A stretch of 64,000 nucleotides of DNA, from contig JAZDPX010000012.1 of assembly GCA_043797125.1 (NCBI GenBank), forward strand, positions 24,376 through 88,375, given 5' to 3'. This stretch comes from Candidatus Omnitrophota bacterium. GTDB taxonomy: Bacteria; Omnitrophota; Gorgyraeia; JABMRG01; JAFGKX01. Positions 10,486-63,679 of the stretch are shown in pieces. Within the stretch, counting starts at the first letter, position 1. Each line of letters begins with the position of its first letter. The position numbers and the translations under genes are program-made. Under the pieces are notes generated by a model. That model did no database searches. It was not told the DNA's origin and saw nothing but the letters and a program-made list of their open reading frames with translations.

Positions 10486-10695
10486 ATGTTTATTTTTGGT
10501 TTAATAGGCATAGTAGCATTGGCTTTAGGAATACTGCATTTTACCAGCACGGATACAATATGTAAAATAGATGAAATCGGGAAAAAGGTTATCATTACCA
10601 TGGATAAGATGGTAAAAAAATACCCTAAAAGATTAGGCGTGCTTTACATTATTGCCGCTACTTTCCTGATTTATGTTGGCTTCTTTTTGAAATAA
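10486..10695 (+). CDS. small two-TM membrane protein, hypothetical
   Basis: 69-aa ORF with two hydrophobic helices. 3' end overlaps the convergent gene. No recognisable motif. Confidence 0.3.
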   Translation: MFIFGLIGIVALALGILHFTSTDTICKIDEIGKKVIITMDKMVKKYPKRLGVLYIIAATFLIYVGFFLK

Positions 10696-12785
10696 TTTAA
10701 AGCCTTGTATAGATTCAGCCTTGCCTGTACGTGATTCGGGTTAAGGCGCAGCGCCTTTCTCCAAAATTTAATCGCCTTATCTTGATTTCCGATAGCGTTG
10801 TATATTACCCCGATATTGTTATAAGCAAATGCCGACCCCGAATCAGAGCGTAAGATTGCCCTAAACGCTTTCAGAGAATCATTTATTTTTCCTTTTTCGT
10901 AAAATAAAAGCCCAAGCCTGCTAAAGGCCTCGGTATGATTGGGGTTTGCCTTGACAACTTTTAAGAACTCCTCAATTGCCTTATCGCTTTCGCGCTTTTT
11001 TTCGTATGCAAGCCCGAGGTTATAATGGATAAACGGGCTTTTTTGGTCCGCATTTTTTGCCTCTTCTAATACAGATATGGCCTCATCATACAGGCCGATT
11101 ATTCTTAGGAATTCCCCTTTCTTAAAAAGCGTAAACGGAAACAGCCCCTTTACTGCCTTTTGAGCAGGATATTGTTTAATTACTTCGTAGATATTAGGAT
11201 ATTTATTGATAATATCCCTGTTCGCAAAAGAATTTTTTACAAAGACGCAGGATATCTCGTCAAAAAAGACAAGCCTCCAGTCGCTATTGTTATAAATATA
11301 TTCCAGAAGCGCGTCAGAATCAATGTATATGCGGCTTAAAATTATATAATTTATGTCAAAACCTTTCGTCACCTTGTCAAATTCTTTAGGATGCGATGTT
11401 AAGTCCACGTAGCCTTTGTAGAATTTCGGGCCGTATACTTCGGTTCTGCCGTCGATAAACACCTTTCTTTCAGGGGTAAGCCGAAAGATAAGATAACCGC
11501 CTATTTCGTAGGCATTGAACATATTGCCTTTGATGTTATTTGCCAGGATAAAGCGAACAGCGTCCTTTGGATATTTTGCATCCAAATCCCCAAGCCCGAA
11601 ACTTCGCACTGTTTTTTCCCTGAAGCAATATCTTGGAGATGTGGCAATAAAAGTTAAAGAAAGCATGCCGGCGATAAGACATAGAAGCAGTAGTAATTCT
11701 AAAACCATAGGGGACAGTTTCCCGAACAATTTGGAAAGCGTCTCCCGAACAAATCGGAAAGCGTCTCCGGATTGAGCAGATTCAAAGTTAAGCATGGTAA
11801 TAGGAGCGGTGAGTATGGCAAAATCAATGATATTTCTATTGGCCTTAAACGAAAAGGCCAAAAAAATAGCGTAAATGATAAGGTGCGTAGGATTCAAGCG
11901 CTTGTAATTTAAAACAAAGCCGGCTAAAGATAAAAATATCAGAAGTTTATAATAAGGGTAAGGTTGTAATTTTAAGATATTGTAAATATTAAGAGGCGGC
12001 TGCAGCTCCGTGATGTATTTCATTATAACTTCCTGCCAGCCGCTGTTGTTTATGCCTGTTAATGTCAAAAACGGATACAAAGCCCCGGTTAAGCCGTTTG
12101 GATTTATCAGGCCTGCTAATATGGCTGCCGCTGCAACACGCAGCAGCGTATTAAGTTTTTCTCTTTTCATGCGCTGCAATGCCTCGCCGATTAAATAGGA
12201 GAGTATAAGTATTATCCCCATTAAAGAGCCGCCGTGCAGATTTGTCCAAACCATTTGCAAGACAGGCAGTAAAAAAATTAGTTTCGTATTTTTGTATTTA
12301 AAATTATGCAATATTGAAAAATATATAACAAGGAATAAGGAATTGAACATGAAGGGGCGCTCAAGAAATCTATGTTCTGAAGCCAAAACCGCCACGACCG
12401 TTAAAATCACAGAAACCAAATATAAATTCTTGCGAAAACAAACAGCAAAAACAATAAAAAACGCAGCGCCAAAAACAAGCGCCTTCAAAACCACGATGCC
12501 GCCCAAGCCAAAGCCCCTGAAAATTAAGAAAAGCAAGACATCAGCCAACCACTGATGGTTAACCCATCGATGGCCAGGCACTGTATATGAAAATATATCG
12601 ATTTTTGGGATAAAACCATTGGCTAATATATACTCCCCTGTTTTTAAGTGCCACCAGATGTCAAAATCCCTTATATTTTGAATTAACATGGCAGCTACAA
12701 ACGTAAAAAGCCCTAAAAATACAGCGTATTTCGCGGCCTTTAGCAAGACAGGCAGCCAAGGAAAGAAAAAATTTTGCTTTTTCAT
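10671..12785 (-). CDS. polytopic membrane protein (GT-C/PMT-like N-terminal domain) with C-terminal TPR repeats
   Basis: At least 10 predicted TM helices in the N-terminal 450 aa. The C-terminal 170 aa contain about four TPR units (NLGLAYEKK..., AFSRLGLLFYEKG..., AYNNIGVIYNAIG...). Confidence 0.7.
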   Translation of the reverse strand: MKKQNFFFPWLPVLLKAAKYAVFLGLFTFVAAMLIQNIRDFDIWWHLKTGEYILANGFIPKIDIFSYTVPGHRWVNHQWLADVLLFLIFRGFGLGGIVVLKALVFGAAFFIVFAVCFRKNLYLVSVILTVVAVLASEHRFLERPFMFNSLFLVIYFSILHNFKYKNTKLIFLLPVLQMVWTNLHGGSLMGIILILSYLIGEALQRMKREKLNTLLRVAAAAILAGLINPNGLTGALYPFLTLTGINNSGWQEVIMKYITELQPPLNIYNILKLQPYPYYKLLIFLSLAGFVLNYKRLNPTHLIIYAIFLAFSFKANRNIIDFAILTAPITMLNFESAQSGDAFRFVRETLSKLFGKLSPMVLELLLLLCLIAGMLSLTFIATSPRYCFREKTVRSFGLGDLDAKYPKDAVRFILANNIKGNMFNAYEIGGYLIFRLTPERKVFIDGRTEVYGPKFYKGYVDLTSHPKEFDKVTKGFDINYIILSRIYIDSDALLEYIYNNSDWRLVFFDEISCVFVKNSFANRDIINKYPNIYEVIKQYPAQKAVKGLFPFTLFKKGEFLRIIGLYDEAISVLEEAKNADQKSPFIHYNLGLAYEKKRESDKAIEEFLKVVKANPNHTEAFSRLGLLFYEKGKINDSLKAFRAILRSDSGSAFAYNNIGVIYNAIGNQDKAIKFWRKALRLNPNHVQARLNLYKALNYFKKKPT
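11690..11775. repeat. two tandem copies of a short dispersed repeat (TTTCCCGAACAA...GGAAAGCGTCTC) embedded in-frame in the TPR membrane protein gene
   Basis: gacagtttcccgaacaatttggaaagcgtctcccgaacaaatcggaaagcgtctcc. Its reverse complement matches 34967-35002 in the bio esterase-BioC gene at 31/33 nt. Confidence 0.5.
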
Positions 12786-24699: not shown

Positions 24700-25794
24700 C
24701 TAACACTCCGCTATCCTTACATAAAGCGAAATACCGGCAGCCAAAAATATGACATTCGCTGCCCACAGGCCTAAATAAGGCGGCATGATTTCCTTAAGCG
24801 CCAAAGCCTCCCCTGCTATAAATATGCCGTAATAACTCAGCATAATAATCAGGCTTAAGCCGAAGGCTACGGATTTTTCTCGTCTCCTTGTATTTATCGC
24901 AATAGGCAGCCCTACCAGCGCGAATACAAAACTTGAAAATGCCAGGGCTATCTTTTTGTGTATTTCAATTATAAGCGGCGTGGGCTTTATATTAGATGCC
25001 TTCATTGTGAGGGCCTCGGCTTTAAGCTCCTTTATCGACATATCTTTCGGTTTTTTTGTAACGTTAACATCTACAAGTTCTTCAGAAAGGTCCAGGGTGA
25101 GATTATAGTTTTTAAAATTTACCTTATAATAAAGATTAGGATTTTTGGGGTTTGGTTCATCGATTGTTCCGTTTATCAATTTTAGCAACACCGTGCTTTT
25201 TTCCGGGAATGTTGTTATTTCGCCTCCCTGCGCTATAATGGTCCTTGTGGGATTATCTTCCTGCAGTCTGTATACCCTGATATTTTCAAGCTTGTTCCCG
25301 TTTATGCCGTATATAAATATGATATGGTCTTTAAAGTCTTTGATAAAAACCCCGGGCTCAAGATAAGCTATCGGGTTCTTAAGGCCGATTTCTTTTACCG
25401 TCTTGTTTATAAAATAATGAGACCTGGTAATTATGGTGTCATTTAGATAAACCTGAAAAAGGCTCAATATAAACGCAAACACTATTACAGGAAACCCTAT
25501 TCTATATATACTTATGCCGCTCGCCTTCATAGCAACCACTTCATTATCAGATGCCAGCCTGCCAAAACACATTACTATTGAAGCGAGTATGGCCATGGGC
25601 AGCGTATAACTTAGCAGGTATGGTATGAAGGCCGAAAAGACCTTTGCCATCAGGATAGGGTTTACGCCTTTATTGATGACCATGTCCGTCATCTTCATGA
25701 CATTGCCTATTACCATCACAAAAGTGAACACCGCCAGAGATATGAAAAACGGCCCCAGCAGTTCTTTTAGCACATAATTTCTCAATGTCCTCAT
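24700..25794 (-). CDS. LptF/LptG-family LPS export permease (YjgP/YjgQ)
   Basis: Paralogous to the adjacent gene. The pair implies an outer membrane with LPS. Confidence 0.7.
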   Translation of the reverse strand: MRTLRNYVLKELLGPFFISLAVFTFVMVIGNVMKMTDMVINKGVNPILMAKVFSAFIPYLLSYTLPMAILASIVMCFGRLASDNEVVAMKASGISIYRIGFPVIVFAFILSLFQVYLNDTIITRSHYFINKTVKEIGLKNPIAYLEPGVFIKDFKDHIIFIYGINGNKLENIRVYRLQEDNPTRTIIAQGGEITTFPEKSTVLLKLINGTIDEPNPKNPNLYYKVNFKNYNLTLDLSEELVDVNVTKKPKDMSIKELKAEALTMKASNIKPTPLIIEIHKKIALAFSSFVFALVGLPIAINTRRREKSVAFGLSLIIMLSYYGIFIAGEALALKEIMPPYLGLWAANVIFLAAGISLYVRIAEC

Positions 25795-30506: not shown

Positions 30507-30593
30507 GGCCTGTTGCAATTTGCTCCCCCCGATGTCATTCCCGCGAAACTTGTCCCCGTGAAAACGGGGAGCGGGGATCCATAGTTCGGCTTT

Positions 30594-30820
30594 TGCAATG
30601 TTTGGTGCTAAATCCTTTTAGCTTTTGCGTGCCTGCCTTCGCTTGTCGCTCGCAAAAAGGATCGTTTCGCCTTCGGCGAAAGGCGCTTTTTGCTCGCTGT
30701 GGCAAAAATCGCTCACTTCTCGCTTAGGTTTTCGCGATTTTTGACAGTCGCTCCGGCAGGACACGCAAAAGCTTTTTTAATGTACCTCGCATTGCAGAAA
30801 CCTCACTTAGATGAATTAGG
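30594..30820. mobile_element. MITE-like highly structured repeat element, copy 1
   Basis: Terminal inverted repeats GGCTTTTGCAATG...CATTGCAGAAACC. Internal nested palindromes. A second copy sits at 36438-36621 with near-identical termini and both end in ATTAGG. No ORF. Confidence 0.5.
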
Positions 30821-30902
30821 GTCAGGGCTCAATAATCAACAAAAATTGTAAAATGTTGAAAATTGAGATCAGGCCCTATATTTCACAGAAAAGAGGCAAG
30901 AT

Positions 30903-32092: not shown

Positions 32093-32185
32093 CCCTTACG
32101 AGTACGTACCGTTTACCGACTCAATTGGTAACCTGTTCTTACCTTAAGCTTATAACTGTCCCCCGGATTCCCGCTTGCGCGGGAA

Positions 32186-32217
32186 TGACAAACCTTAAAA
32201 GGTTTGTCATTTTTTTA
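32186..32217 (+). terminator. rho-independent terminator
   Basis: TGACAAACC-ttaaaa-GGTTTGTCA hairpin followed by TTTTTTT. Preceded by a second hairpin ATTCCCGC-ttgc-GCGGGAAT. Confidence 0.6.
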
Positions 32218-32248
32218 TGGAAATCGTCAACCCAACCTGCTACAATAG

Positions 32249-33184
32249 TTGACAATTATGGAAACCGCCTCAAAAACCACAAAAAACCAGCTCCTTGAGC
32301 TGGAGCTTTCCGAGCTTTTACTTAGAGCCAATAGGATAAGGCAGCAATTTATAGCTGACAGAGTAGAGCTTTGCAGTATTACGAACGCCAAAAGCGGCTT
32401 ATGCAACGAGGACTGTAAATTCTGCGCCCAGGTATCACGCTACAAAGCCGCAAAACAGACGTATCCCCTTAAAAGCGTAAAAGAGATAGTAGCGGCCGCA
32501 AAAACTGCCAAATGCGCAGGCGCAGGAAGGTTCGGTATTGTAACAAGCGGCAACCGCCTGAACGCAAAAGAGCTGGGCGATATAGCGGCTGCAATATCAA
32601 AAATTAAAAATGAAGTTAATATTATTGTTTGCGCATCCTTAGGTGCCCTTAATGAAAATGAGCTGAAAAAATTAAAAGACGCAGGGCTTTCGCGTTATCA
32701 TCACAATATCGAGACATCCGAAAGGTTCTACCCGAACATCGTCTCTACGCATAGTTTTAAAGAGCGCATAGATACAATAAGGGCCGCCAAGCAAGCAGGC
32801 TTAGAGGTTTGCAGCGGCGGCATAATCGGCATGGGTGAGAGCTGGCAGGATAGAATTGATATGGCGCGCACTTTAAAAAAATTAAATGTGGATTCTGTGC
32901 CCTTAAACCTGCTTGTGCCTATAAAAGGGACGCCTTTGGAATTTATTGAGCCTATTTCCTGCAAAGATGCAATCAGGGCAATAGCTATTTTTAGAATCAT
33001 ATTAAAGGACAAGACCTTAAAGATAGCCGCAGGAAGAGAAAGCGTTTTAAAGGATTTTCAGACCTTAGGATTTTTAGCAGGCGCTAATGGAATGATTATA
33101 GGTGGTTATCTTACTGTTAAAGGCAATCCCCTGCAGGATGATTACAAACTTATAGAACAAGTAAAATCTTTATGGAGCAAATAA
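32249..33184 (+). CDS. bioB: biotin synthase
   Basis: Radical-SAM CNEDCKFC (CxxxCxxC). BioB length and motifs. Confidence 0.9.
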   Translation: MTIMETASKTTKNQLLELELSELLLRANRIRQQFIADRVELCSITNAKSGLCNEDCKFCAQVSRYKAAKQTYPLKSVKEIVAAAKTAKCAGAGRFGIVTSGNRLNAKELGDIAAAISKIKNEVNIIVCASLGALNENELKKLKDAGLSRYHHNIETSERFYPNIVSTHSFKERIDTIRAAKQAGLEVCSGGIIGMGESWQDRIDMARTLKKLNVDSVPLNLLVPIKGTPLEFIEPISCKDAIRAIAIFRIILKDKTLKIAAGRESVLKDFQTLGFLAGANGMIIGGYLTVKGNPLQDDYKLIEQVKSLWSK

Positions 33185-34326
33185 ACCAGTTTTTAAAAGA
33201 GGCAGAAGAAAACGGCCTTTTAAGAATCCTGCACCCGGCAGATTACAGAAGAAACGGCGTGATTTGCATTGAAGGCAGAGAATATGCTGATTTTTCATCC
33301 AATGATTATCTTGGCTTATCGCATCATGCTTATATAAAAAGCGCCTCATGCAATATTATAGAAAAACTCGGCGCCTCATCAAGCGCATCCAGATTATTAA
33401 GCGGAAGCTTAACGCTTCACAGCGAACTTGAAGACAGAACCGCCTCTTTTAAAGGCAAGGAAGCAGCTCTTATTTTTAATAGCGGCTATCAGGCAAACAT
33501 AGGGATAATAAGTTCGTTGTGCTCAAGGGGCGATGTTGTCTTCACCGACAAGCTAAGCCACGCGAGCATAATCGATGGGGTATTGTTATCCGGGGCGAAA
33601 CTTTTTAGGTTTCTGCATAATGACGCAGGGAGTCTTGAATCTTTATTAAAAACGCACAGGCAAAAATTTAAAAACGCCCTGATAATAACAGAAACAGTTT
33701 TCAGCATGGATGGGGACATAGCGCCTTTGAAAGACTTAGTAAGCATAAAAGAAGAATACAACTGCCAAATCATGATTGATGAAGCTCATGCAACAGGCGT
33801 ATTCGGCGATAGTGGCTCAGGGATTGCGGAAAAGGAGAATTTAACAGATTCCATAGATTTGATTATGGGGACATTCAGCAAGGCCCTCGGAAGCTTCGGT
33901 GCCTATTTGGCTTGCTCAAAAAATATAAAAGATTATTTAATAAATACATCAAGAAGCTTTATATATTCCACCGCATTGCCACCCTCGGTTATAGCGGCAA
34001 ATTTGGCCAGCCTTGAGTTAATTAAAAAGGAGCCGTTTAGAAGGCGGGAACTTTTGCAGAAAGCGTCATATTTTAGAAATGAATTATCAAGCCTCAGGCT
34101 TACAGTAAAAGGCTCTTCGCAAATAATACCTTTAATTGTTAAGGACAGCCGTAAGGCAGTAAAAATCAGCAGCCTCCTTAAAGAGAAAGGCTTCTGGGCG
34201 CCTGCCATAAGGCCGCCTACGGTCCCTGCCAATGAAGCGCGAATAAGGTTTTCCTTAAGTTATTGCCACACAAAAGATGTATTGGATAGGCTTATCAATG
34301 ATATCTATGAAATCAACGAATTTTAA
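33172..34326 (+). CDS. bioF: 8-amino-7-oxononanoate synthase
   Basis: Class II aminotransferase fold. PLP lysine in TFSKALGSFG. FSSNDYLGLS. Confidence 0.85.
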   Translation: MEQINQFLKEAEENGLLRILHPADYRRNGVICIEGREYADFSSNDYLGLSHHAYIKSASCNIIEKLGASSSASRLLSGSLTLHSELEDRTASFKGKEAALIFNSGYQANIGIISSLCSRGDVVFTDKLSHASIIDGVLLSGAKLFRFLHNDAGSLESLLKTHRQKFKNALIITETVFSMDGDIAPLKDLVSIKEEYNCQIMIDEAHATGVFGDSGSGIAEKENLTDSIDLIMGTFSKALGSFGAYLACSKNIKDYLINTSRSFIYSTALPPSVIAANLASLELIKKEPFRRRELLQKASYFRNELSSLRLTVKGSSQIIPLIVKDSRKAVKISSLLKEKGFWAPAIRPPTVPANEARIRFSLSYCHTKDVLDRLINDIYEINEF

Positions 34327-34354
34327 ATACATAAACAGGAATAAAGAGAGCACA

Positions 34355-35848
34355 ATGGTTTTTGTGCCCGGCTGGGCAACTGATTACAGGATTTTTGATT
34401 CGCTAAAGCAGGATTGCAACTGCCTGATCCCTGAGAGTTTTCACCCGTTCGATTTTAAAGAGCGTCTTTTGAATGCGTTAAAAAAAAATAGCATAGAAAG
34501 GCTCTCGCTTTTTGGATTTTCGCTCGGTGGTTTTGTCGCAGCGGAATTTGCTTTTGAATTTCCAAAGCTGGTAGATGAGCTTGTGTTGGTAGGCATAAGA
34601 AAAAGATACGACCCCTTGGCGATAGAGACGATAAAACAAAAGCTTCTAAAAAACAAAAACGCCTTTTTGTACACATTTTACAGTCAGTGTTTTTATAATA
34701 AAGACGCCTTTTCCTTTTTTAAGAAGAATTTGCTCAAAATTTATTGCGATTGTATGGAGCTGGATTACCTGCTTGAAACTTTGGAGTATCTAAAAAATTC
34801 TAGAATAACATCCCAGATGCTGAAAGCAATAAAGAGCGTAAAAATCATGCACGGAGAATTTGACGCAATAGCCCCGATAGAAGAGGCCAGGGATATAGCA
34901 CGCAGCTTAAACAATGCAGAGTTCGCATGCCTACAAAACGAAGGCCACATCCCCTACAGCTGGAGACGCTTACCAAATTGTTCGGGAAAGTGTCCCAAAA
35001 TTGTTCGGGAAAGTGTTCCCGTCTTGTTCGGGAAACAGTTTCCTGAACAGATCAGAAAGCGTTTCCCGAGCAAGTTGGAAAACGTCTCGATGAACAAAGA
35101 AGCTATAAGAAGGAATTTTTCGAAATACGCAGGATATTATGATCAATACTGCAATATACAGAATGCCTGCGCGCAAGAACTCATAGGAAAATTAAACGGC
35201 GCTCATTTCAATAATATTCTTGATATCGGCTGCGGAACAGGAAACTACACTAAATTTTTAAGGGAAAAATTTCCAAAGGCCGCAATAAAGGCGATAGACA
35301 TCTCGGAAAACATGATAGAAATAGCGAAGCTTAAATTATCGGGCGATAATATAGAATTTATCGTTGCCGATGCGGAGACAATAGACCTTGACGCTGGGTT
35401 TGACCTTTTAAGCTCAAACGCTTCCTTGCAATGGTTTGAAAACCTAGAAAGCGCTCTTATAAAATATAAGGAATTACTGGCAGCAGGAGGCGTCGCGCTG
35501 TTTTCTGTATTCGGGCCCAACACTTTTCATGAGCTGGATGAGTCCCTGAAGCAGGTATTCGGCAAAAGTAAAAGCATAAGTTCCTATAATTTTCTGGAAA
35601 AAAGAAAAATAGAGGCTGTCTTAAGCGGACTTTTTAATGAAATCCAGATAGAGCAAAAGATATACACCGAAAAACACGCCTCTTTGACAGACCTGCTTAA
35701 AAAAATAAAATATACAGGCACAAGAGGCAATGGCGCTCGTACGCTTTGGAGCATTGGCACATTAAGCAGGCTTGAAGACGTATATAAAAAGAAATTCAAC
35801 GATATAACAGCAACATACGAGGTGTTTTTTTGCAAAGCGGTAAAATGA
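34355..35848 (+). CDS. fusion of pimeloyl-ACP methyl ester esterase (BioG/BioH-type alpha/beta hydrolase) and malonyl-ACP O-methyltransferase BioC
   Basis: N-terminal ~215 aa carry the GFSLGG nucleophile elbow and His near the end. C-terminal half carries SAM motif ILDIGCGTGNYT and BioC-like sequence. Start set at ATG 34355 (RBS AAAGAGAG). Confidence 0.75.
   Translation: MVFVPGWATDYRIFDSLKQDCNCLIPESFHPFDFKERLLNALKKNSIERLSLFGFSLGGFVAAEFAFEFPKLVDELVLVGIRKRYDPLAIETIKQKLLKNKNAFLYTFYSQCFYNKDAFSFFKKNLLKIYCDCMELDYLLETLEYLKNSRITSQMLKAIKSVKIMHGEFDAIAPIEEARDIARSLNNAEFACLQNEGHIPYSWRRLPNCSGKCPKIVRESVPVLFGKQFPEQIRKRFPSKLENVSMNKEAIRRNFSKYAGYYDQYCNIQNACAQELIGKLNGAHFNNILDIGCGTGNYTKFLREKFPKAAIKAIDISENMIEIAKLKLSGDNIEFIVADAETIDLDAGFDLLSSNASLQWFENLESALIKYKELLAAGGVALFSVFGPNTFHELDESLKQVFGKSKSISSYNFLEKRKIEAVLSGLFNEIQIEQKIYTEKHASLTDLLKKIKYTGTRGNGARTLWSIGTLSRLEDVYKKKFNDITATYEVFFCKAVK
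34967..35090. repeat. intragenic array of a ~23-nt repeat (TTGTTCGGGAAAGTGTCCC; three direct copies plus one inverted) in the esterase-BioC linker
   Basis: ccaaattgttcgggaaagtgtccc / aaaattgttcgggaaagtgttccc / gtcttgttcgggaaacagtttcc / tttcccgagcaagttggaaaacgtctc. Each copy is read in a different codon phase. Confidence 0.6.
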
Positions 35849-36465
35849 AAGCTATTTTTGTTACAGGCACCGGAACAGGCGTAGGAAAGACCACTGTCTG
35901 CAGACTGCTGGAAAGATTCCTTAAGACAAATGGATACAGGACGATAACGCAGAAGTGGATCTGCACAGGCAGTAAAACCCTTCCCATAAATAAAGATAAG
36001 CAGCCTTACACATTTAAATTTCCTGCCTCGCCTCATCTTGCGGCGCGGCTCGAACGAAAATGTGTAAGTAAAAAAATAATAAAACAAAGTTTCAGGAATT
36101 TGCAGAGGCAGTTTGATTTTGTAATAGTAGAAGGCATAGGTGGGGCGCTTGTGCCTTTTAATAATAAGCAACTGGTGATAGATATTGCCAAAGAACTGAA
36201 GCTGCCAGTTTTGGTAGTAATAGATAATAAACTCGGCGCCATTAACCATGCCCTATTAACTATCGAGGCCTTGCGGCGAAGAAAGATGAACATAATAGGC
36301 CTCATCTTCAATAACCGCCGCAAGAGTCAGAACAAAATAATCTTGAATGATAATGTTGATATAATAAAAAGGCTGACAGGGAAGCGGGTGCTGGGAGTAC
36401 TGCCATTCATTCAACGGCGGGCCCTATCTCACCGTTGGTTCGGTTTTTGCAATGCTTGGTGCTGA
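35830..36465 (+). CDS. bioD: dethiobiotin synthetase
   Basis: P-loop FVTGTGTGVGKTTV. Length about 210 aa. The last ~10 codons and the stop lie inside the MITE-like element. Confidence 0.85.
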   Translation: MQSGKMKAIFVTGTGTGVGKTTVCRLLERFLKTNGYRTITQKWICTGSKTLPINKDKQPYTFKFPASPHLAARLERKCVSKKIIKQSFRNLQRQFDFVIVEGIGGALVPFNNKQLVIDIAKELKLPVLVVIDNKLGAINHALLTIEALRRRKMNIIGLIFNNRRKSQNKIILNDNVDIIKRLTGKRVLGVLPFIQRRALSHRWFGFCNAWC

Positions 36466-36621
36466 AATTTTTCGCCGTCCTTTTGGACTTACGGCTTGGT
36501 CGCTTACCCTATAATAAAGAATCTTAGCCGCTTCCGCGCCGTAAGTCCTAAAAGGACATTTGGCGAAAAATTTCTAATGCACCTTCGCATTGCAAAAACC
36601 TCACCAATGGTAAATATTAGG
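36438..36621. mobile_element. MITE-like structured repeat element, copy 2 (overlaps bioD 3' end)
   Basis: Termini GGTTTTTGCAATG...CATTGCAAAAACC. Internal 28-bp stem TTTTTCGCCGTCCTTTTGGACTTACGGC/GCCGTAAGTCCTAAAAGGACATTTGGCGAAAAA. Confidence 0.5.
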
Positions 36622-36945
36622 CCGAGGGGTGTTACTTTAGAATTCGCAACTGATTAAAGGCTTAAGGCGTTGCCGAAAAAACAATAGCGGAGGATTTGGT
36701 ATACTTGCTTAGGAGTAGGCAAAACTTAGGAGTGCCTGCCTACCGTCAGGCAGGCAGGCTGGGGACACCGAAACTGAACCCTTGTATAGTAGGGCCGGCT
36801 TAAGCCTGCCCTACTATCAGTAGGTGAATTTCGGAGGGGCCCCAGCCGAACGACTATAGTTTTGCCCAAATCCGAAGCGTGTTTTTGAGGCAATGCCTTA
36901 AGCCTATTAATGTAGCTCAAATTGCAAAAGCCTCAACTTAGGTGA
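36590..36945. repeat. left arm of long inverted repeat flanking bioA
   Basis: Reverse complement matches 38297-38607 at roughly 85-90% identity by eye, e.g. cctcaaaaacacgcttcggatttgggcaaaactatagtcgttcgg and ctgcctgcctgacggtaggcaggcact. Confidence 0.7.
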
Positions 36946-36949
36946 TAAT

Positions 36950-38296
36950 ATGAATACGTGGATAGAGAAGGATCTCAAGTACGTTTGGCATCCGTATACC
37001 CAAATGAAGGATTGCAAGAAACTCCCGCCTATTCTGATCGAGCGGGCAAAGGGTATTAAGCTCTACGATAACAAAGGTAATTTTTACTACGATACCATCT
37101 CAAGCTGGTGGTGCAATGTCCACGGGCATAACCATCCCAAAGTAAAAGCGGCGATTAAAAGGCAGCTGGATTTATTTGAGCACGTGATGTTTGCCGGCTT
37201 TACGCATAAGCCCGCCATTATGCTGGCAGAAGAACTTATCCGCATTTCTCCCGAATCCCTGACAAAGGTGTTTTTTTCAGATAACGGCTCAACAGCTGTT
37301 GAGACAGCGCTTAAAATGTCTTTTCAATATTGGCATAACACAGGCAAAAGCAAAAAGACAAAATTTCTTTCCTTAGATTACGGGTATCACGGCGACACAA
37401 TAGCGACGATGAGCGTAAGCAGCGTTGATTTGTTCAATATAAAATATAAAGCGCTTATGTTTAACTCGTACAAGGCGAGTTCGCCTTACTGCTATCGCTG
37501 CCCCGTAGGAAAAAATCGCAATAATTGCAGTATAGAGTGCATAGGTTCGCTGGAAACCGCGCTTAAAAATCATAACAGCGAAATAGCCGCTGTTATATTA
37601 GAGCCACTGGTTATGGCTGCAGGCGGAATGATTATATATCCTAAAGAATATCTGGAAAAGGCAGGCGCACTTGCTGAAAAATACAATGTCCACCTGATAT
37701 TAGACGAAGTTGCAACAGGCTTTGGCAGGACAGGAAAGATGTTTGCCTGCGATTATACGGATATACAACCTGACTTTATGTGCCTGTCTAAAGGCATAAC
37801 AGCGGGTTTTCTTGCGATGGGCGCAACGTTGACTACGGATAAGATTTACAATGCCTTTTATGCGGATTATCAGAAGAAAAAGACATTTTATCACGGCCAT
37901 ACCTATACCGCTAACCCTTTATGCTGCGCAGCAGCATTAGCGAGCCTTGGTGTGTTCCGCAAAGAGTGCACTTTAGACAAAATAGACAAACTTATTCCAG
38001 TTTTTCATAAAAAGCTGGAAGGTTTTAAGAATCTTCCAGCTGTCGGAGACATCCGCTACATAGGCATGATAGGCGCTCTGGAATTAGTTAAGGATAAAAA
38101 TACCAAAGAGGCATTTGGCTTTAAAGAAAGAATAGGCCAAAAGATTTATGCCGAAGGCTTAAAAAGTGGCATTTTGTTAAGGCCGCTTGGAAATATAATT
38201 TATTTCTTCTTGCCTTTATGTATTGCAGAGCGCGAGATTAAACTCATTTTAGAAAAGTCCTATAATATACTTTCCAGAATCAGCAAATCTATTTAA
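36950..38296 (+). CDS. bioA: adenosylmethionine-8-amino-7-oxononanoate aminotransferase
   Basis: Class III aminotransferase. N-terminal YVWHPYTQM. PLP-lysine region typical of BioA. Confidence 0.9.
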   Translation: MNTWIEKDLKYVWHPYTQMKDCKKLPPILIERAKGIKLYDNKGNFYYDTISSWWCNVHGHNHPKVKAAIKRQLDLFEHVMFAGFTHKPAIMLAEELIRISPESLTKVFFSDNGSTAVETALKMSFQYWHNTGKSKKTKFLSLDYGYHGDTIATMSVSSVDLFNIKYKALMFNSYKASSPYCYRCPVGKNRNNCSIECIGSLETALKNHNSEIAAVILEPLVMAAGGMIIYPKEYLEKAGALAEKYNVHLILDEVATGFGRTGKMFACDYTDIQPDFMCLSKGITAGFLAMGATLTTDKIYNAFYADYQKKKTFYHGHTYTANPLCCAAALASLGVFRKECTLDKIDKLIPVFHKKLEGFKNLPAVGDIRYIGMIGALELVKDKNTKEAFGFKERIGQKIYAEGLKSGILLRPLGNIIYFFLPLCIAEREIKLILEKSYNILSRISKSI

Positions 38297-38607
38297 GGCT
38301 TAAGGCATAGCCTCAAAAACACGCTTCAGATTTGGGCAAAACTATAGTCGTTCGGCCGGGGCCCCTCCGAATTCACCTACAGATGGTAGCGCAGGCTTAA
38401 GCCTGCGCTACCATCCAAGGGTTCATTCGGTGTCCCCGGCCTGCCTGCCTGACGGTAGGCAGGCACTGCTATGTTTTGCCTACAACCAAAACAAGCGAGC
38501 CAAATCTTCCGCTATTGTTTTTTCGGCAATGTCTTAAGCCTTCAAAGCGGAGACATTGTCAATAAGTTAGGCTTTTGCAATGTGAGGCGCATATGTTTAA
38601 GGCCTGT
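38297..38607. repeat. right arm of long inverted repeat flanking bioA
   Basis: Inverted copy of 36590-36945. Contains hairpin GGTAGCGCA-GGCTTAAGCC-TGCGCTACC. Confidence 0.7.
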
Positions 38608-38751
38608 GGTAATTCGAGCAGGGCTTGCGAGGCCGAGCGGGCATGGTTCGCCCTTGTTTCCATACAGGCGAGAGCGAAGGCCGAGGTCAGAGCACAAAAA
38701 TCCACGCTGGGGATTTTTGTGCGTCCCTGCGAGAATTGCCACAGGCCTTAA
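38607..38751. repeat. 145-bp palindromic structured element
   Basis: Ends TTAAGGCCTGTGGTAATTCGAGCAGGGC and GTCCCTGCGAGAATTGCCACAGGCCTTAA pair over about 28 bp. Internal perfect hairpin GCACAAAAATCC-acgctgg-GGATTTTTGTGC. Confidence 0.5.
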
Positions 38752-38774
38752 GCAAGTCTACTCAAATATTAAAC

Positions 38775-44678: not shown

Positions 44679-44710
44679 GACGTAGCGGAGGCTTAAGCCT
44701 CCGCTACGTC
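44679..44710. repeat. perfect hairpin GACGTAGCGGA-GGCTTAAGCC-TCCGCTACGTC (GGCTTAAGCC REP-like family)
   Basis: Same GGCTTAAGCC core and GTAGSGC arms as hairpins at about 36788-36816 and 38378-38406. Confidence 0.6.
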
Positions 44711-59097: not shown

Positions 59098-59498
59098 CAC
59101 AGCCAAGTTTAGAATCATTAGAGCCCTATGGCTGTGCCGGGTGGCATAGTCATAGGGTTTTCTGTTTACGGGTCCTTGGAAGCCGGTGTCGGGTGAGGGT
59201 CGGGCGAGGCGCGGGTTGTCAGTGATTATGGTCAAAAAAATCGATGACAATGTCAATTCAACGGGTGTCTTGGGCATCTATGGTCAGATTGGCTGGAATG
59301 AGCGTTCCCAGACGGTAAACAAGCGACTTTCGGGGTGTCCTGCAGGCGGTCGGGGTCGTCAAAAAGGGCGTTTTTGAGTGACATGGATGGACATTTGGTG
59401 CGTTGTATAAACGTTATGCGATTGTAACTGTAGGCGGTACTTTTGATGAACGAAAGTACAGCAAGATTTGGGTGAATTTTAATGCTCACTTTAGGCTA

Positions 59499-59565
59499 AT
59501 GTTCACTAAACAGTGAACATTGTTGCGCGAACATCGTGTCAGAAAAAGCATATAGTTTTTCTGAC
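59499..59565 (+). promoter_or_regulatory. candidate operator boxes: palindrome ATGTTCAC-N6-GTGAACAT, a third GAACAT half-site, and perfect IR GTCAGAAAAA-N8-TTTTTCTGAC
   Basis: Perfect 8-bp arms at 59499-59520. Extra half-site at 59530-59535. 10-bp arms at 59538-59565. All lie just upstream of the XRE gene promoter. Confidence 0.45.
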
Positions 59566-59597
59566 AAGGCCAATCCTGTTTTGCTGGCTGTTTTTGA

Positions 59598-59626
59598 TTG
59601 ACTCCCAATGCTTTTCGTGCTATAAG
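59598..59626 (+). promoter_or_regulatory. sigma70-type promoter for the XRE regulator operon
   Basis: TTGACT (59598-59603), 17-nt spacer, TATAAG (59621-59626). RBS AGGAGA and ATG at 59655. Confidence 0.45.
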
Positions 59627-59654
59627 ATGCAATATGCGCAATAGGAGAATAACT

Positions 59655-59892: not shown

Positions 59893-61341
59893 ATGAAATA
59901 TAAAATCTTTGTCAGTGGTGCACAGAAGGAGTTGAAGAAAGAACGCCGGGCAGTCAAAGAGTTTATCCGTAAGGATGCGCTTTTATCAGAATATTTCGAT
60001 GTTTTTCTTTTTGAGGATTCTCCCGCCAAGAGTAAATCAGCCGAAGTAGCTTACATCGAAGAAGTCCGCAAAAGCGACATTTACATCGGCATTCTCGGAC
60101 AGCAATATGGCGGCTCCGGAAAAGAAAAGATGTCGCCGACAGAAGCAGAATTCCGCGAAGCCAAGGTGAAACACAAGGAAATATTGATCTATATTAAAGG
60201 TCAAAACACCGCAGATAAGCTCCGTGACGGTGGTATGCAGGAATTTATAACGGAAATTAAAAATCCGAAGGCAGGGTACAGTTATGGAAGATTTGATACT
60301 GCTACCGAATTAACCAATCTGGTTTACGAGAGCCTGATATCCTTTCTTAAAGAAAAAGGTGAGATTGGAAAGGCGGGATTTGATCAACGAATTTGCGAGG
60401 GGGCTAAGCTATCCGACATTGACGAGAATAAGGTTAAATGGTTTTTAAAGACAGCGCGGTCAAAACGTAATTTCCCGCTTGGGTTGGATGCTTCCGTGAC
60501 CGACATTTTTATTCATTTGAAACTACTCAAGGACGGTAAGCTGACTAATGCCGCCATTTTATTATTCGGCAAGAATCCGCGAAAGTTTTTTGATCAGGCA
60601 AAGATCAAGTGTGTGCAATTGCCCAGCACTGAGGTCGTGAAGCCGTTTTCGTCGTATCATATTTATGAGGAAGAAAACCTCTTTGAACAAGTCGATAAGG
60701 CAGTATCGTTTGTTTTGGATGCCATTAAATTTCCTGTCATTCAACAATCGCATACAGTGCAGGTAGCGCGGCCTCGTGAGATACCTGAGTTTGCTATCCA
60801 TGAAGCAATCGTTAATGCTGTAGCGCATCGTGATTACAATACAACGTCATCTGTTCAGGTGATGGTTTTTCTCGATCGCGTTGAGATATGGAATTCCGGA
60901 ACGCTTCCCGGGAATCTCAAAGTGGAGGATCTAAGAAAACCACATTCTTCACATCCGTCAAATCCGACGTTAGCGAGTGTTCTATTTTTTGGAGACTATA
61001 TACAACAGGTGGGATCCGGCACAACGGAAATGATTCGACAGTGTAAAGAACATGGACTTCCGGAGCCGGAGTTCATTTCAGTGCGAAATCTTGAGTTTAA
61101 GACGATACTGGCAAGGGATGTCTTTACGGAAACTAATCTTGCCCAAATGGGGCTTAATGACCGTCAGGTTAAGGCTATCAAGTATATCAAGGAGCATAGG
61201 CAAATTTCGCGTAAAGACTATGTTAGTTTGGTATCTATATCTCCTCGGCAAGCTCTAATTGATCTCACAGAACTGGTAGAGAAGAAAGTCTTAATATTGA
61301 TAGGCAAGGGAAGATCGTCTAAATATACATTGCGCAAATAA
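59893..61341 (+). CDS. DUF4062 - AlbA_2 (Schlafen-like divergent AAA) - HATPase_c_4 - wHTH protein, putative defense/regulatory ATPase
   Basis: N-terminus KIFVSGAQKELKKERRAVKEFI is DUF4062-like. Middle region has the AlbA_2 pattern. C-terminus GSGTTEMIRQCKEHGLPEPEF is the HATPase_c_4 signature, followed by a winged helix. Confidence 0.7.
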   Translation: MKYKIFVSGAQKELKKERRAVKEFIRKDALLSEYFDVFLFEDSPAKSKSAEVAYIEEVRKSDIYIGILGQQYGGSGKEKMSPTEAEFREAKVKHKEILIYIKGQNTADKLRDGGMQEFITEIKNPKAGYSYGRFDTATELTNLVYESLISFLKEKGEIGKAGFDQRICEGAKLSDIDENKVKWFLKTARSKRNFPLGLDASVTDIFIHLKLLKDGKLTNAAILLFGKNPRKFFDQAKIKCVQLPSTEVVKPFSSYHIYEEENLFEQVDKAVSFVLDAIKFPVIQQSHTVQVARPREIPEFAIHEAIVNAVAHRDYNTTSSVQVMVFLDRVEIWNSGTLPGNLKVEDLRKPHSSHPSNPTLASVLFFGDYIQQVGSGTTEMIRQCKEHGLPEPEFISVRNLEFKTILARDVFTETNLAQMGLNDRQVKAIKYIKEHRQISRKDYVSLVSISPRQALIDLTELVEKKVLILIGKGRSSKYTLRK

Positions 61342-61345
61342 TGTT

Positions 61346-61381
61346 CGATTAGTGCGCGATTTGCGCGATTAGTGCGCGATT
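61346..61381. repeat. direct repeats CGATTAGTGCGCGATT x2 (GCGCGATT x3) upstream of radC
   Basis: cgattagtgcgcgatt-tgcg-cgattagtgcgcgatt. Confidence 0.5.
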
Positions 61382-61412
61382 AAATAAGCGAAGAACAGAG
61401 AAGAGAAGAATA

Positions 61413-62114
61413 GTGAAGGAAAGAAAAGCGACAGGTATAAAGACTTGGCCGGAGGATGATAGGCCGCGTGAGAAGTTGCTCAAGAAGGGTGCAGGGGCTT
61501 TGAGTAATTCAGAGCTTCTGGCTATTCTTCTTCGCACCGGCACGCAAGGCACCAGCGCAATTGACCTTGCTCGCAAGGTTTTGAAGAAATTCGGCACGTT
61601 CCGGAACATGGCGCATACGGATTCGCGCGATTGGAAGGATCTCAAGGGTTTAGGCGGGGCTAAGATTGCCCACATTCAGGCCGCGCTTGAAATCGGGCGG
61701 CGCTATCGCGAGGACGATGTGTCCACCGGGAAGCAGAAGATCGCCTCTGCCAAGGATGTTGTAGATATCGTCATGCCTCAGCTCCGCGACCTTAAGACGG
61801 AGGTGTTTAAGGTCGTTTACCTTGATAGTAATAACCGTATTATCGACATCGTGGATACCGCGGTTGGAACCGTTGATCAGGCATTCCCGATTGTCCGTGA
61901 AATAATCCACGCCGCCTTGCAGAAATTCGCGAAATCAATCGTTTGTGCTCACAATCACCCATCTGGCGAGGTTAATCCAAGCCGGGGCGATATCACTTTT
62001 ACGAATGAGCTTTATAACGCTGGGAAACTTATGCAGGTCGATATTTTGGATCACCTCATAGTAGGAAATGACAAATTTTACAGTTTTGCCGATGAAAATA
62101 AACTTGTAAGTTGA
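61413..62114 (+). CDS. radC: RadC-like JAB/MPN domain protein
   Basis: Helix-hairpin-helix [18 protein letters not shown] motif [14 protein letters not shown]. Stop overlaps the hsdM start region. Confidence 0.85.
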
Positions 62115-62128
62115 GGGAAGGGAATACT

Positions 62129-63679
62129 ATGGCACAAAATCATATAGCAGAGCTTGAGAAGCGATTGTGGGCGGTGGCTGACGAGTTACGAGCCAATTCT
62201 GATTTAAAGGCATCCGAATATTCAGCGCCAGTATTAGGGCTAATCTTTTTAAGATACGCAGATTATCGTTTCACCAAGCAAGAAAAGATACTCTCCGAGA
62301 AATCTACCAGCCGCAGAAAAATTAGTAAAACAGATTACCAAGCCGCAGGCGTTATGTATTTGCCTGATGAAGCGCGCTTTGCTTTTCTGTTGAACTTGCC
62401 GGAAGGTGCGGATATCGGCAAAGCGATCAATGAAGCTATGAAAGCGGTTGAACGCGAAAACGAAGACCTCAAAGGCATTCTTCCTAAAACGTACAACAGA
62501 TTTGACAACAACCTTTTGGTTGAACTGATTAAATTAATGTCATCAATTAAGGAAGATATCGAAGGTGATGCTTTCGGGAAAATTTATGAGTACTTCTTGG
62601 GTGAGTTTGCCATGACCGAAGGACAGCAAGGCGGGGAGTTTTTTACGCCGACTTCTGTTGTCAAATTGATCGTTTCAATTATCCAGCCGTTTCACGGGAA
62701 AATATTTGATCCGGCATGCGGATCGGGCGGTATGTTTGTCCAGAGTGCTGAGTTCGTAGAGGAGCACAAAAAGAAAGCCGTTGATGAGATTAGTATTTAT
62801 GGGGAGGAAAAAACGCGGGAGACGGTCAATCTCTGCAAAATGAACTTAGCGGTTCACGGATTATCGGGTGATGTTCTGCAGGGGAATTCTTATTATGAAG
62901 ATTTGCACAATATGGCTGGTGCATTCGACTTTGTCATGGCCAATCCTCCATTCAACGTCAATCGCATTGATAAAGATCGGATCAAGAATGACCGCAAGCG
63001 ATTTCCGTTTGGAATGCCATCGGCAGATAATGGCAATTACCTTTGGATTCAACTTTTTTACAGTGCGCTGAATGAAAAGGGGCGGGCAGGGTTCGTTATG
63101 GCCACTTCAGCAAGCGATGCCCGTGGAAGCGAGCAAGAAATCCGAAAGAAGTTAATTGATGATAAGACGGTAGATGTAGTGATAGCAGTTGGGTCGAATT
63201 TCTTTTATACGGTCACTTTGCCGGTGACACTGTGGTTTCTCGATAGGGCTAAAAAGAAAAGCGATCGCAAAGACAAAGTGCTTTTTATCGATGCTCGTAA
63301 AATCTTTAATCAGATAGATAGAGCCCATCGGGAATTCTTACCCGAACAGGTAGAGCTTATCGCAAATATTGTCAGAATGTACCGCGGTGAAAATATCGAA
63401 ATAGAACATGGTAGTGAAAAATTCATGAAGGAAAGCTTCCCGAAGGGAAGGTATCAAGATATTACCGGTCTGTGCAAGGTAGCTACCTTGAAGGATATTG
63501 AAGAATTAGGTCTCAGTTTAAATCCCGGTCGATATGTTGGGATAGTTGAGGATGAACGAGACGGTTTTGATTTTAAGGAAAGATTAGAAGTGCTGAATGA
63601 GGAATTGCAGACACTAAATGTTGAGGCGAAAGAGCTTGAGGGGACAATTTCTGAGAACATAAGCAAGATATTGGGTTAA
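62129..63679 (+). CDS. hsdM: type I restriction-modification system DNA methyltransferase subunit
   Basis: HsdM N-terminal domain ([11 protein letters not shown]), SAM motif DPACGSGGM, catalytic NPPF (VMANPPFN). Start set at ATG 62129 (RBS GAGGGAAGGGAA). Confidence 0.9.

Follow-up and report, generated by a model that had tools for sequence, protein, structure and literature searches.

The window analysed here, a stretch of 64,000 nt from a Candidatus Omnitrophota contig, contains a biotin operon with bioB, bioF, a bioH-bioC fusion, bioD and bioA, together with a series of palindromic repeats (Table 1). The BioA of the window is 70% identical from end to end to that of CP070780.1, and its C-terminus reads ...SI* versus ...SICV* in the latter. 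The gap between bioD and bioA is 484 nt, and a gap of 555 nt follows bioA. For comparison, 8 related Omnitrophota loci were used (L012, from CP070780.1; L063/64; L065/66; L067-69; L070/71; L072; and L073). Seven of these loci include bioA; in six of them bioD and bioA overlap or are separated by 5 nt, the remaining one (L065) having a gap of approximately 105 nt according to the gene calls, and bioH and bioC overlap or abut in every relative locus but that of CP070780.1. Between the ThiI/NFACT gene and bioB, the window has a segment of 1.7 kb, versus 49 nt in the relative; this segment contains copy 1 of the repeat, a 57-codon hydrophobic ORF and a HAD hydrolase gene. It should be considered that the nearest relative genome is only 65-70% identical in protein, so the compact related loci are not strict empty sites.

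Several other features of the window were recorded. Directly upstream of bioB is the inverted repeat GTCAAC-N16-GTTGAC (32222-32256), which we take to be a putative BirA-type operator; the relative has TTGTAAACC-N14-GGTTTACG at the equivalent place before bioB (L012 6180-6215). A terminator-like hairpin with a T7 run (32188-32216) lies ahead of the operator-like repeat. Farther along, positions 59100-59650 comprise approximately 550 nt with no long ORF, flanked by a small DsrE-like gene and an ORF with a helix-turn-helix; genes for DUF4062/HATPase_c_4 and for a type I restriction methylase (HsdM) follow at 59893-63679.

Table 1. Genes and repeat features at the biotin locus (window positions)
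Feature	Position	Strand	Remarks
H, small hairpins ATTCCCGC...GCGGGAAT	30537-30578 and 32167-32186		flank the 1.7-kb segment
Copy 1 (E1)	30588-30820	+	233 nt; L-type end, module X, R-type end
L-type end unit of copy 1	30576-30617	+	located by profile
Module X	30630-30771	+	core of copy 1, three-way junction; homologue at L012 8959-9083 (CP070780.1)
R-type end unit of copy 1	30774-30821		ends in ATTAGG
bioB	32249-33184		Pfam
bioF	33172-34326		Pfam
bioH-bioC fusion	34277-35848		Pfam
F cluster	34949-35090		23-nt units GTTTCCCGAACAATTTGGAAAGC, 3 reverse and 2 forward; bioH/bioC junction
bioD as now read	35830-36465	+	Pfam AAA_26/CbiA
Copy 2 (E2)	36442-36621	+	180 nt; boundaries uncertain by ~3 nt
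Displaced native bioD 3' end (PRGVTLEFATD and TAA)	36622-36657	+	in frame with codon 204 after excision
B+	36657-36905	+	250-nt hairpin element of a second family; terminal repeat AGGCTTAAGGC
Solo R-type end unit R3	36904-36952	-	between B+ and the bioA ATG; located by profile
bioA	36950-38296	+	full length; Pfam Aminotran_3; inverted B copies on both sides
B-	38296-38542	-	inverted copy of B
Solo end unit L3	38551-38598 (core 38570-38582)	+	faces the C hairpin; located by profile
C	38594-38754	+	161-nt branched hairpin, single copy, after L3
GGYTTTTGCAATG sites	30588+, 30790-, 36442+, 36588-, 36920-, 38570+		at most 1 mismatch

End units and the two full copies

The conserved part of the repeats is an end unit of approximately 45 nt that is also found singly, a point missed in the earlier note on this DNA. 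Its 13-mer core, GGYTTTTGCAATG, occurs exactly six times in the window at no more than one mismatch; shuffled sequences give an expectation of 0.52 sites, and none of 100 shuffles reached six. When the six ends are aligned, conservation spans about 45 nt, and a profile of these ends recovers the same six sites with E values of 6e-10 to 8e-8, the next best match having E = 1.9. All six ends lie within 8 kb around the bio operon, and the remaining 56 kb of the window has none; the end motif was also not found in the 8 related Omnitrophota loci. Two inverted (convergent) pairs of ends define copy 1 and copy 2, and the other two ends, R3 and L3, are solo units that diverge, each pointing away from the other and from bioA. 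Pairwise identity groups L1 with L2 as one type, and R1, R2, R3 and L3 are closer to each other. Taken singly, the 45-nt unit forms no hairpin and has only a TTGCAA palindrome. GTT(C/A) precedes all three left ends, which we regard as reminiscent of the fixed 4-5-nt target of IS200/IS605.

Copy 1 and copy 2 do share terminal inverted repeats, as had been proposed, with a core of 13-14 nt inside imperfect inverted ends of approximately 25-45 nt; copy 1, however, starts at 30588 instead of 30594. The ATTAGG said to terminate both copies is present at 30815-30820 and 36616-36621. In copy 2, a long interrupted hairpin lies between an L-type end and an R-type end, the latter with the terminal ATTAGG. 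The interiors of the two copies had been described as different from each other and self-complementary, and indeed they are unrelated while both copies fold into long hairpins, with energies of -100.9 kcal/mol (z = -5.9) for copy 1 and -98.8 kcal/mol (z = -11.9) for copy 2. The 28-bp stem reported for copy 2 exists, but as helices of 13, 8 and 11 bp broken by two small bulges. Copy 1, copy 2 and the B element (described below) fold about equally well on both strands, as DNA palindromes would be expected to do and strand-specific RNAs would not. Both copies contain only short ORFs, none with homologues. To the left of copy 2, 22 nt of native bioD are complementary to the element's own right tail at 14 of 21 positions.

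Of the two additional end fragments in the earlier note, that at 36905-36940 stands, whereas that placed at 38585-38607 is about 20 nt off, its true position being that of L3 in Table 1. Within R3, a TTGCAA-16-GATAAT arrangement (36922-36949) is followed by AGGTGA directly before the bioA ATG, and this end may supply bioA with an element-borne ribosome binding site and a weak promoter. An origin of the divergent R3...L3 pair by inversion or circular permutation was considered, and no such scenario rebuilds a normal element.

Neither copy has a copy-specific direct repeat of 3 nt or more that could be a target-site duplication. The flanking pentamers TTCGG and TTAGG are identical in both copies and are thus element sequence, not a duplication. 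With a candidate 10-bp target repeat (CACCGTTGGT/CACCAATGGT), the conserved ATTAGG would fall outside the element and the invariant Phe of BioD would be lost, and the flanks do not fit ISL3-type target duplications of 8 bp or 10 bp. Sixty ORFs of the window were scanned against Pfam, and none was found to encode a transposase, an integrase or a RAYT, in agreement with the earlier note with regard to transposase. Searches for further copies were also negative. The left-end pattern gave 11 hits in 596 Gb of genomes and 31 in JGI metagenomes, all of them single, in unrelated taxa and with no right-end partner within 500 nt, and hence attributable to chance; scans of IMG/VR for the end motif and for a block of module X gave chance hits or nothing. 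Concatenated six-frame peptides of the elements matched nothing at E <= 10 among 5.8 billion proteins, and blastn of the elements against plasmids gave no match. The Rfam scan and RNA folding suggested earlier yielded no Rfam family (at gathering score only tRNAs were detected, and a permissive search returned hairpin noise far below threshold) and the long stable hairpins described above. A full-text literature search found nothing relevant on such repeat elements in Omnitrophota.

Copy 2 within the 3' end of bioD

The BioD of the window ends with ...HRWF followed by GFCNAWC*, and the 13-mer GGYTTTTGCAATG starts at the G after F204. The last seven codons (GFCNAWC) and the TGA stop (36463-36465) are consequently sequence of copy 2, which bears out the earlier claim that the element encodes the C-terminus and stop of BioD; in addition, the native tail is still readable just downstream. 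The NCBI protein MFH0731557.1 is identical to the BioD of the window and has the same GFCNAWC tail. The comparison with relatives that had been called for gave a clear result. The BioD proteins of 19 relatives end ...L-Y-K-x-F-[IVL]-P-I-G-K-K-[IV]-x(1-5), whereas that of the window ends ...L-S-H-R-W-F-G-F-C-N-A-W-C and departs from them exactly where the 13-mer of copy 2 starts.

Conceptual excision of 36442-36621 (180 nt) or 36445-36621 (177 nt) yields ...HRWF(G)PRGVTLEFATD*. In the restored tail, a Phe, a Pro, a Gly and a hydrophobic residue line up with the F-x-P-x-G-K-K-I tail of the 19 relatives, and the stop codon is at the usual distance. This restoration of register and length shows copy 2 to be a discrete insertion of 177-180 nt, situated 11-12 codons ahead of the native bioD stop. 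The BioD of E. coli aligns only up to the LGxxPW/F loop, after which it has 16 further residues; the replaced segment is thus the terminal tail beyond the conserved core, and this tail may be dispensable. For annotation there is a trap here, in that the C-terminus of BioD is element-derived and the native tail is a cryptic remnant.

Module X and the neighbouring palindromes

The variable interiors are separate modules (X, B and C), one of which is common to another genome. Module X, the core of copy 1, is 74% identical over 101 nt to the bioH/bioC spacer of CP070780.1 (blastn, E ~2e-10), with one block identical at 31 of 32 positions and the same three-way-junction fold in both copies. A covariance model of X scores the two copies at 163 and 148 bits and detects nothing else in 173 kb. 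In CP070780.1, X lies inside a different, perfect 19-nt inverted repeat, itself nested in another inverted repeat; the TGA of bioH is contributed by the GCCTGTGAGGCC end of this outer repeat, and the mosaic is missing from 7 other genomes. X is therefore found at a different junction and in a different palindromic shell in the two genomes, as expected of portable modules. A REP-like palindrome of CP070780.1, TGTTCGAGGTTCGACCTCG, was also observed in three intergenic regions within 20 kb (L012 5052-5138, 9109-9137 and 12005-12037).

In both genomes X is in sense orientation and inside or next to the bio operon, and its joining strands are conserved, although the proteins of the two are only 65-70% identical. 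In the joint fold of the two copies, most of the "compensatory" pairs fall in the non-homologous shells, and within X there is one clear change, from C-G to U-A in the 3' hairpin. Since only bio-centred loci of relatives were sampled, the association of X with biotin genes is partly an ascertainment effect. We consider it very unlikely that X is a conserved structured RNA tied to biotin operons and more than cargo. We know of no biotin-responsive RNA, and if the proposal were true, a bio-linked X element would be new.

The second family, B, is present as two copies on either side of bioA, B+ being 89.2% identical to the reverse complement of B-. B+ folds with an energy of -143 kcal/mol (z = -10.8). 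Each copy begins at the final A of a TAA, which is the displaced bioD stop for B+ and the bioA stop for B-; within an operon transcript, the two could pair with one another, with the whole of bioA in between. Degenerate partner ends beside B+ and B- were considered; their alignment is weak and the profile does not detect them, and to the left of B+ the native bioD tail explains the sequence better. The apex palindrome of B, GTAGCGSAGGCTTAAGCCTSCGCTAC, recurs alone at 44682-44707. A perfect 32-nt palindrome, GACGTAGCGGAGGCTTAAGCCTCCGCTACGTC, is located there at 44679-44710, just past a gene end, with 24852-24861 as a further, shorter site; as it matches the apex, B apparently contains a small palindrome that also exists independently.

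The C hairpin differs from B and from the full copies in its strand preference, with minimum free energies of -90.2 kcal/mol on the plus strand versus -72.2 on the minus strand and 8 versus 1 G-U pairs. On the basis of this predicted asymmetry, C could be a strand-specific RNA. C has no match in Rfam, and it cannot be read as a diverged X, as the alignment is poor and the covariance model of X does not detect it.

The F cluster forms a hairpin (z = -6.8), and its in-frame translation gives a 44-residue linker that joins BioH to BioC. Two more F units occur at 11709-11781 within a gene for a membrane/TPR protein (10671-12785, minus strand), in the same orientation relative to translation; the comparison does not support an in-frame insertion at that site, as the loop of homologues there is of similar length. 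The two H hairpins share a flanking GTCATTCCCGCG in opposite orientation, and the first of them (30537-30578) has another hairpin nested in its loop. The H motif presumably resembles the dRS3 repeats of Neisseria. The whole region is built as a mosaic in which at least four palindromic families are nested.

Nature and probable origin of the elements

Taken together, these results make it reasonably probable that the elements are small non-coding palindromic repeats of a mobile type (MITE/REP-like), nested in one another in a Candidatus Omnitrophota genome. This reading is founded on the statistics of the ends, the excisable insertion, the absence from relatives, the lack of strand bias, the parallel behaviour of B and of the CP070780.1 mosaic, and the agreement with what is reported for MITEs, namely that they cluster, insert into one another, give rise to in-frame fusions and, when co-transcribed, are processed by RNase III (PMC10969869). 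MITEs measure roughly 50-600 bp and have no transposase gene, and the full copies here are 233 and 180 nt long. Like MITEs and the Correia elements of Neisseria, the present elements are small (180-233 nt), non-coding, bounded by terminal inverted repeats and able to form a hairpin. As with Correia elements, they are inserted at gene ends and in operons, are presumably co-transcribed, and have one end with a promoter-like hexamer pair, and their clustering and nesting are shared with MITEs (PMC10969869). On the other hand, they have neither a TA nor any other target-site duplication and no sequence similarity to these elements, their interior is not conserved between copies, and they belong to another phylum. 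The earlier label of a MITE-like family is consequently only partly supported: size, lack of coding capacity, terminal inverted repeats, hairpin, absence from relatives and excisability speak for it, whereas no target-site duplication is visible and all six ends in the window are confined to 8 kb. We regard it as the best available label, reasonable but incomplete.

The likeness to Correia elements and Rickettsia palindromic elements (RPEs) put forward earlier also needs widening, for the mosaic resembles the BIME or ERIC type just as much. As in RPEs, a palindromic repeat gives codons to a host protein, and the F cluster is read through in frame; copy 2, in contrast, is not read through, its TGA coming after 7 codons, so that the tail is replaced and no internal segment is added. 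ERIC/IRU sequences of enterobacteria are transcribed imperfect palindromes with conserved ends and with size variants due to internal insertion, and they affect mRNA stability. The sequences described here are unrelated to them, and the interiors are different modules rather than insertions into a common core (this comparison rests partly on PMC10969869).

An explanation without mobility would be that these are cis-acting RNA structures of the bio operon (for processing, stability or attenuation) that were locally duplicated and selected, X being a conserved regulatory RNA; we consider this unlikely. It would account for the clustering of all copies at one operon with none elsewhere in the 64 kb, and for their position on the transcribed strand within or next to that operon, but seven other Omnitrophota bio operons are tightly packed and do not have these structures. 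The strong strand asymmetry of C is in line with an RNA function, whereas copy 1, copy 2 and B have no strand bias and the interiors of the two copies are unrelated. Similarly, X is sense-oriented at the bio operon of two genomes and has conserved unpaired stretches and the one C-G to U-A change, but it occupies different junctions in the two, and its bio association is subject to the sampling effect mentioned above. Moreover, copy 1 lies upstream of an unrelated HAD hydrolase gene, with the terminator and the putative BirA-type operator intervening before bioB, and one copy has damaged a coding region.

A different account of the mobility, to which we assign a small probability, takes the end units as REP-like and copies 1 and 2 as REPIN-like doublets, mobilised by a RAYT or an IS200/IS605-type Y1 transposase and not by a DDE enzyme. 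The units do occur as inverted doublets and as singlets, at extragenic or gene-end positions between operon genes, with no target duplication, in mosaics with other palindromes as in BIMEs, and behind GTT(C/A) at all three left ends, with its presumed likeness to the IS200/IS605 target. However, REPs are units of 20-40 nt, each forming a stem-loop, that occur both alone and as inverted doublets around a short conserved spacer (PMC3116915, PMC3337134). The 45-nt unit here has no such hairpin, the two doublets have long spacers (130-190 nt) without relation to each other, there is a consistent difference between L-type and R-type units, and the window contains no RAYT or TnpA gene.

Integron-like, site-specific recombination sites (attC-like), with the genes between them as cassettes, are highly improbable, and this reading is largely refuted already. 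The conserved ends, the centres that vary in sequence and length while being structured, the bioD stop codon inside the element and the heptamers resembling GTTRRRY (GTTAGGC at 38566; GTTCGGC, GTTCGGT, ATTAGGC and CTTAGGT elsewhere) recall attC sites, but the core-site polarity is reversed, both strands reading 5'-GTTMGGY...RCCKMAC-3' versus 5'-RYYYAAC...GTTRRRY-3' in attC. In addition, there is no integrase in the window, what lies between the sites is the bio operon, native and syntenic, and not a set of promoterless cassettes, and copy 2 interrupts a gene instead of following one. Finally, chance similarity or an assembly artefact is extremely improbable. Repeats in a MAG such as the source can be assembled wrongly, but the statistics greatly exceed what chance would give, the copies are 71-89% identical and hence not collapsed or duplicated reads, and the elements lie mid-way in a 92.7-kb contig with coherent gene order and frames around them.

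As regards architecture, two inverted end units and a variable palindromic interior make up a hairpin element of 180-233 nt, and end units also exist singly beside other hairpin modules (B and C). Compared with a compact ancestral bioBFHCDA operon, there are insertions upstream of the operon, inside the 3' end of bioD, directly after the stops of bioD and bioA, and at the bioH/bioC junction. Copy 2 has split bioD, such that translation runs 7 codons into the element and halts at its TGA. Mobilisation was presumably in trans, through a transposase gene at another place in the genome; given the lack of target duplication and the strong hairpins, a single-strand (IS200/IS605/RAYT-type) or site-specific mechanism fits at least as well as DDE cut-and-paste. 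New elements would tend to land in or beside existing palindromes and so give nested mosaics. Once co-transcribed, hairpins of -100 to -140 kcal/mol may uncouple genes that formerly overlapped, with a probable role in stabilising the mRNA or as targets of RNase III.

The finding resolves no open question; it extends an ordinary kind of bacterial mobile DNA to a phylum in which it was previously undescribed. One lead from it is the sharing of X together with the modularity of shell and core, which gives a handle on how such mosaics are assembled, and the elements may be usable as strain markers. In the Omnitrophota, a candidate phylum known almost only from metagenomes, such repeats reshape operons: at this locus, overlapping genes have come to lie 0.5 kb apart, a protein tail has been replaced, two enzymes have been fused, and stop codons have been donated by repeats.
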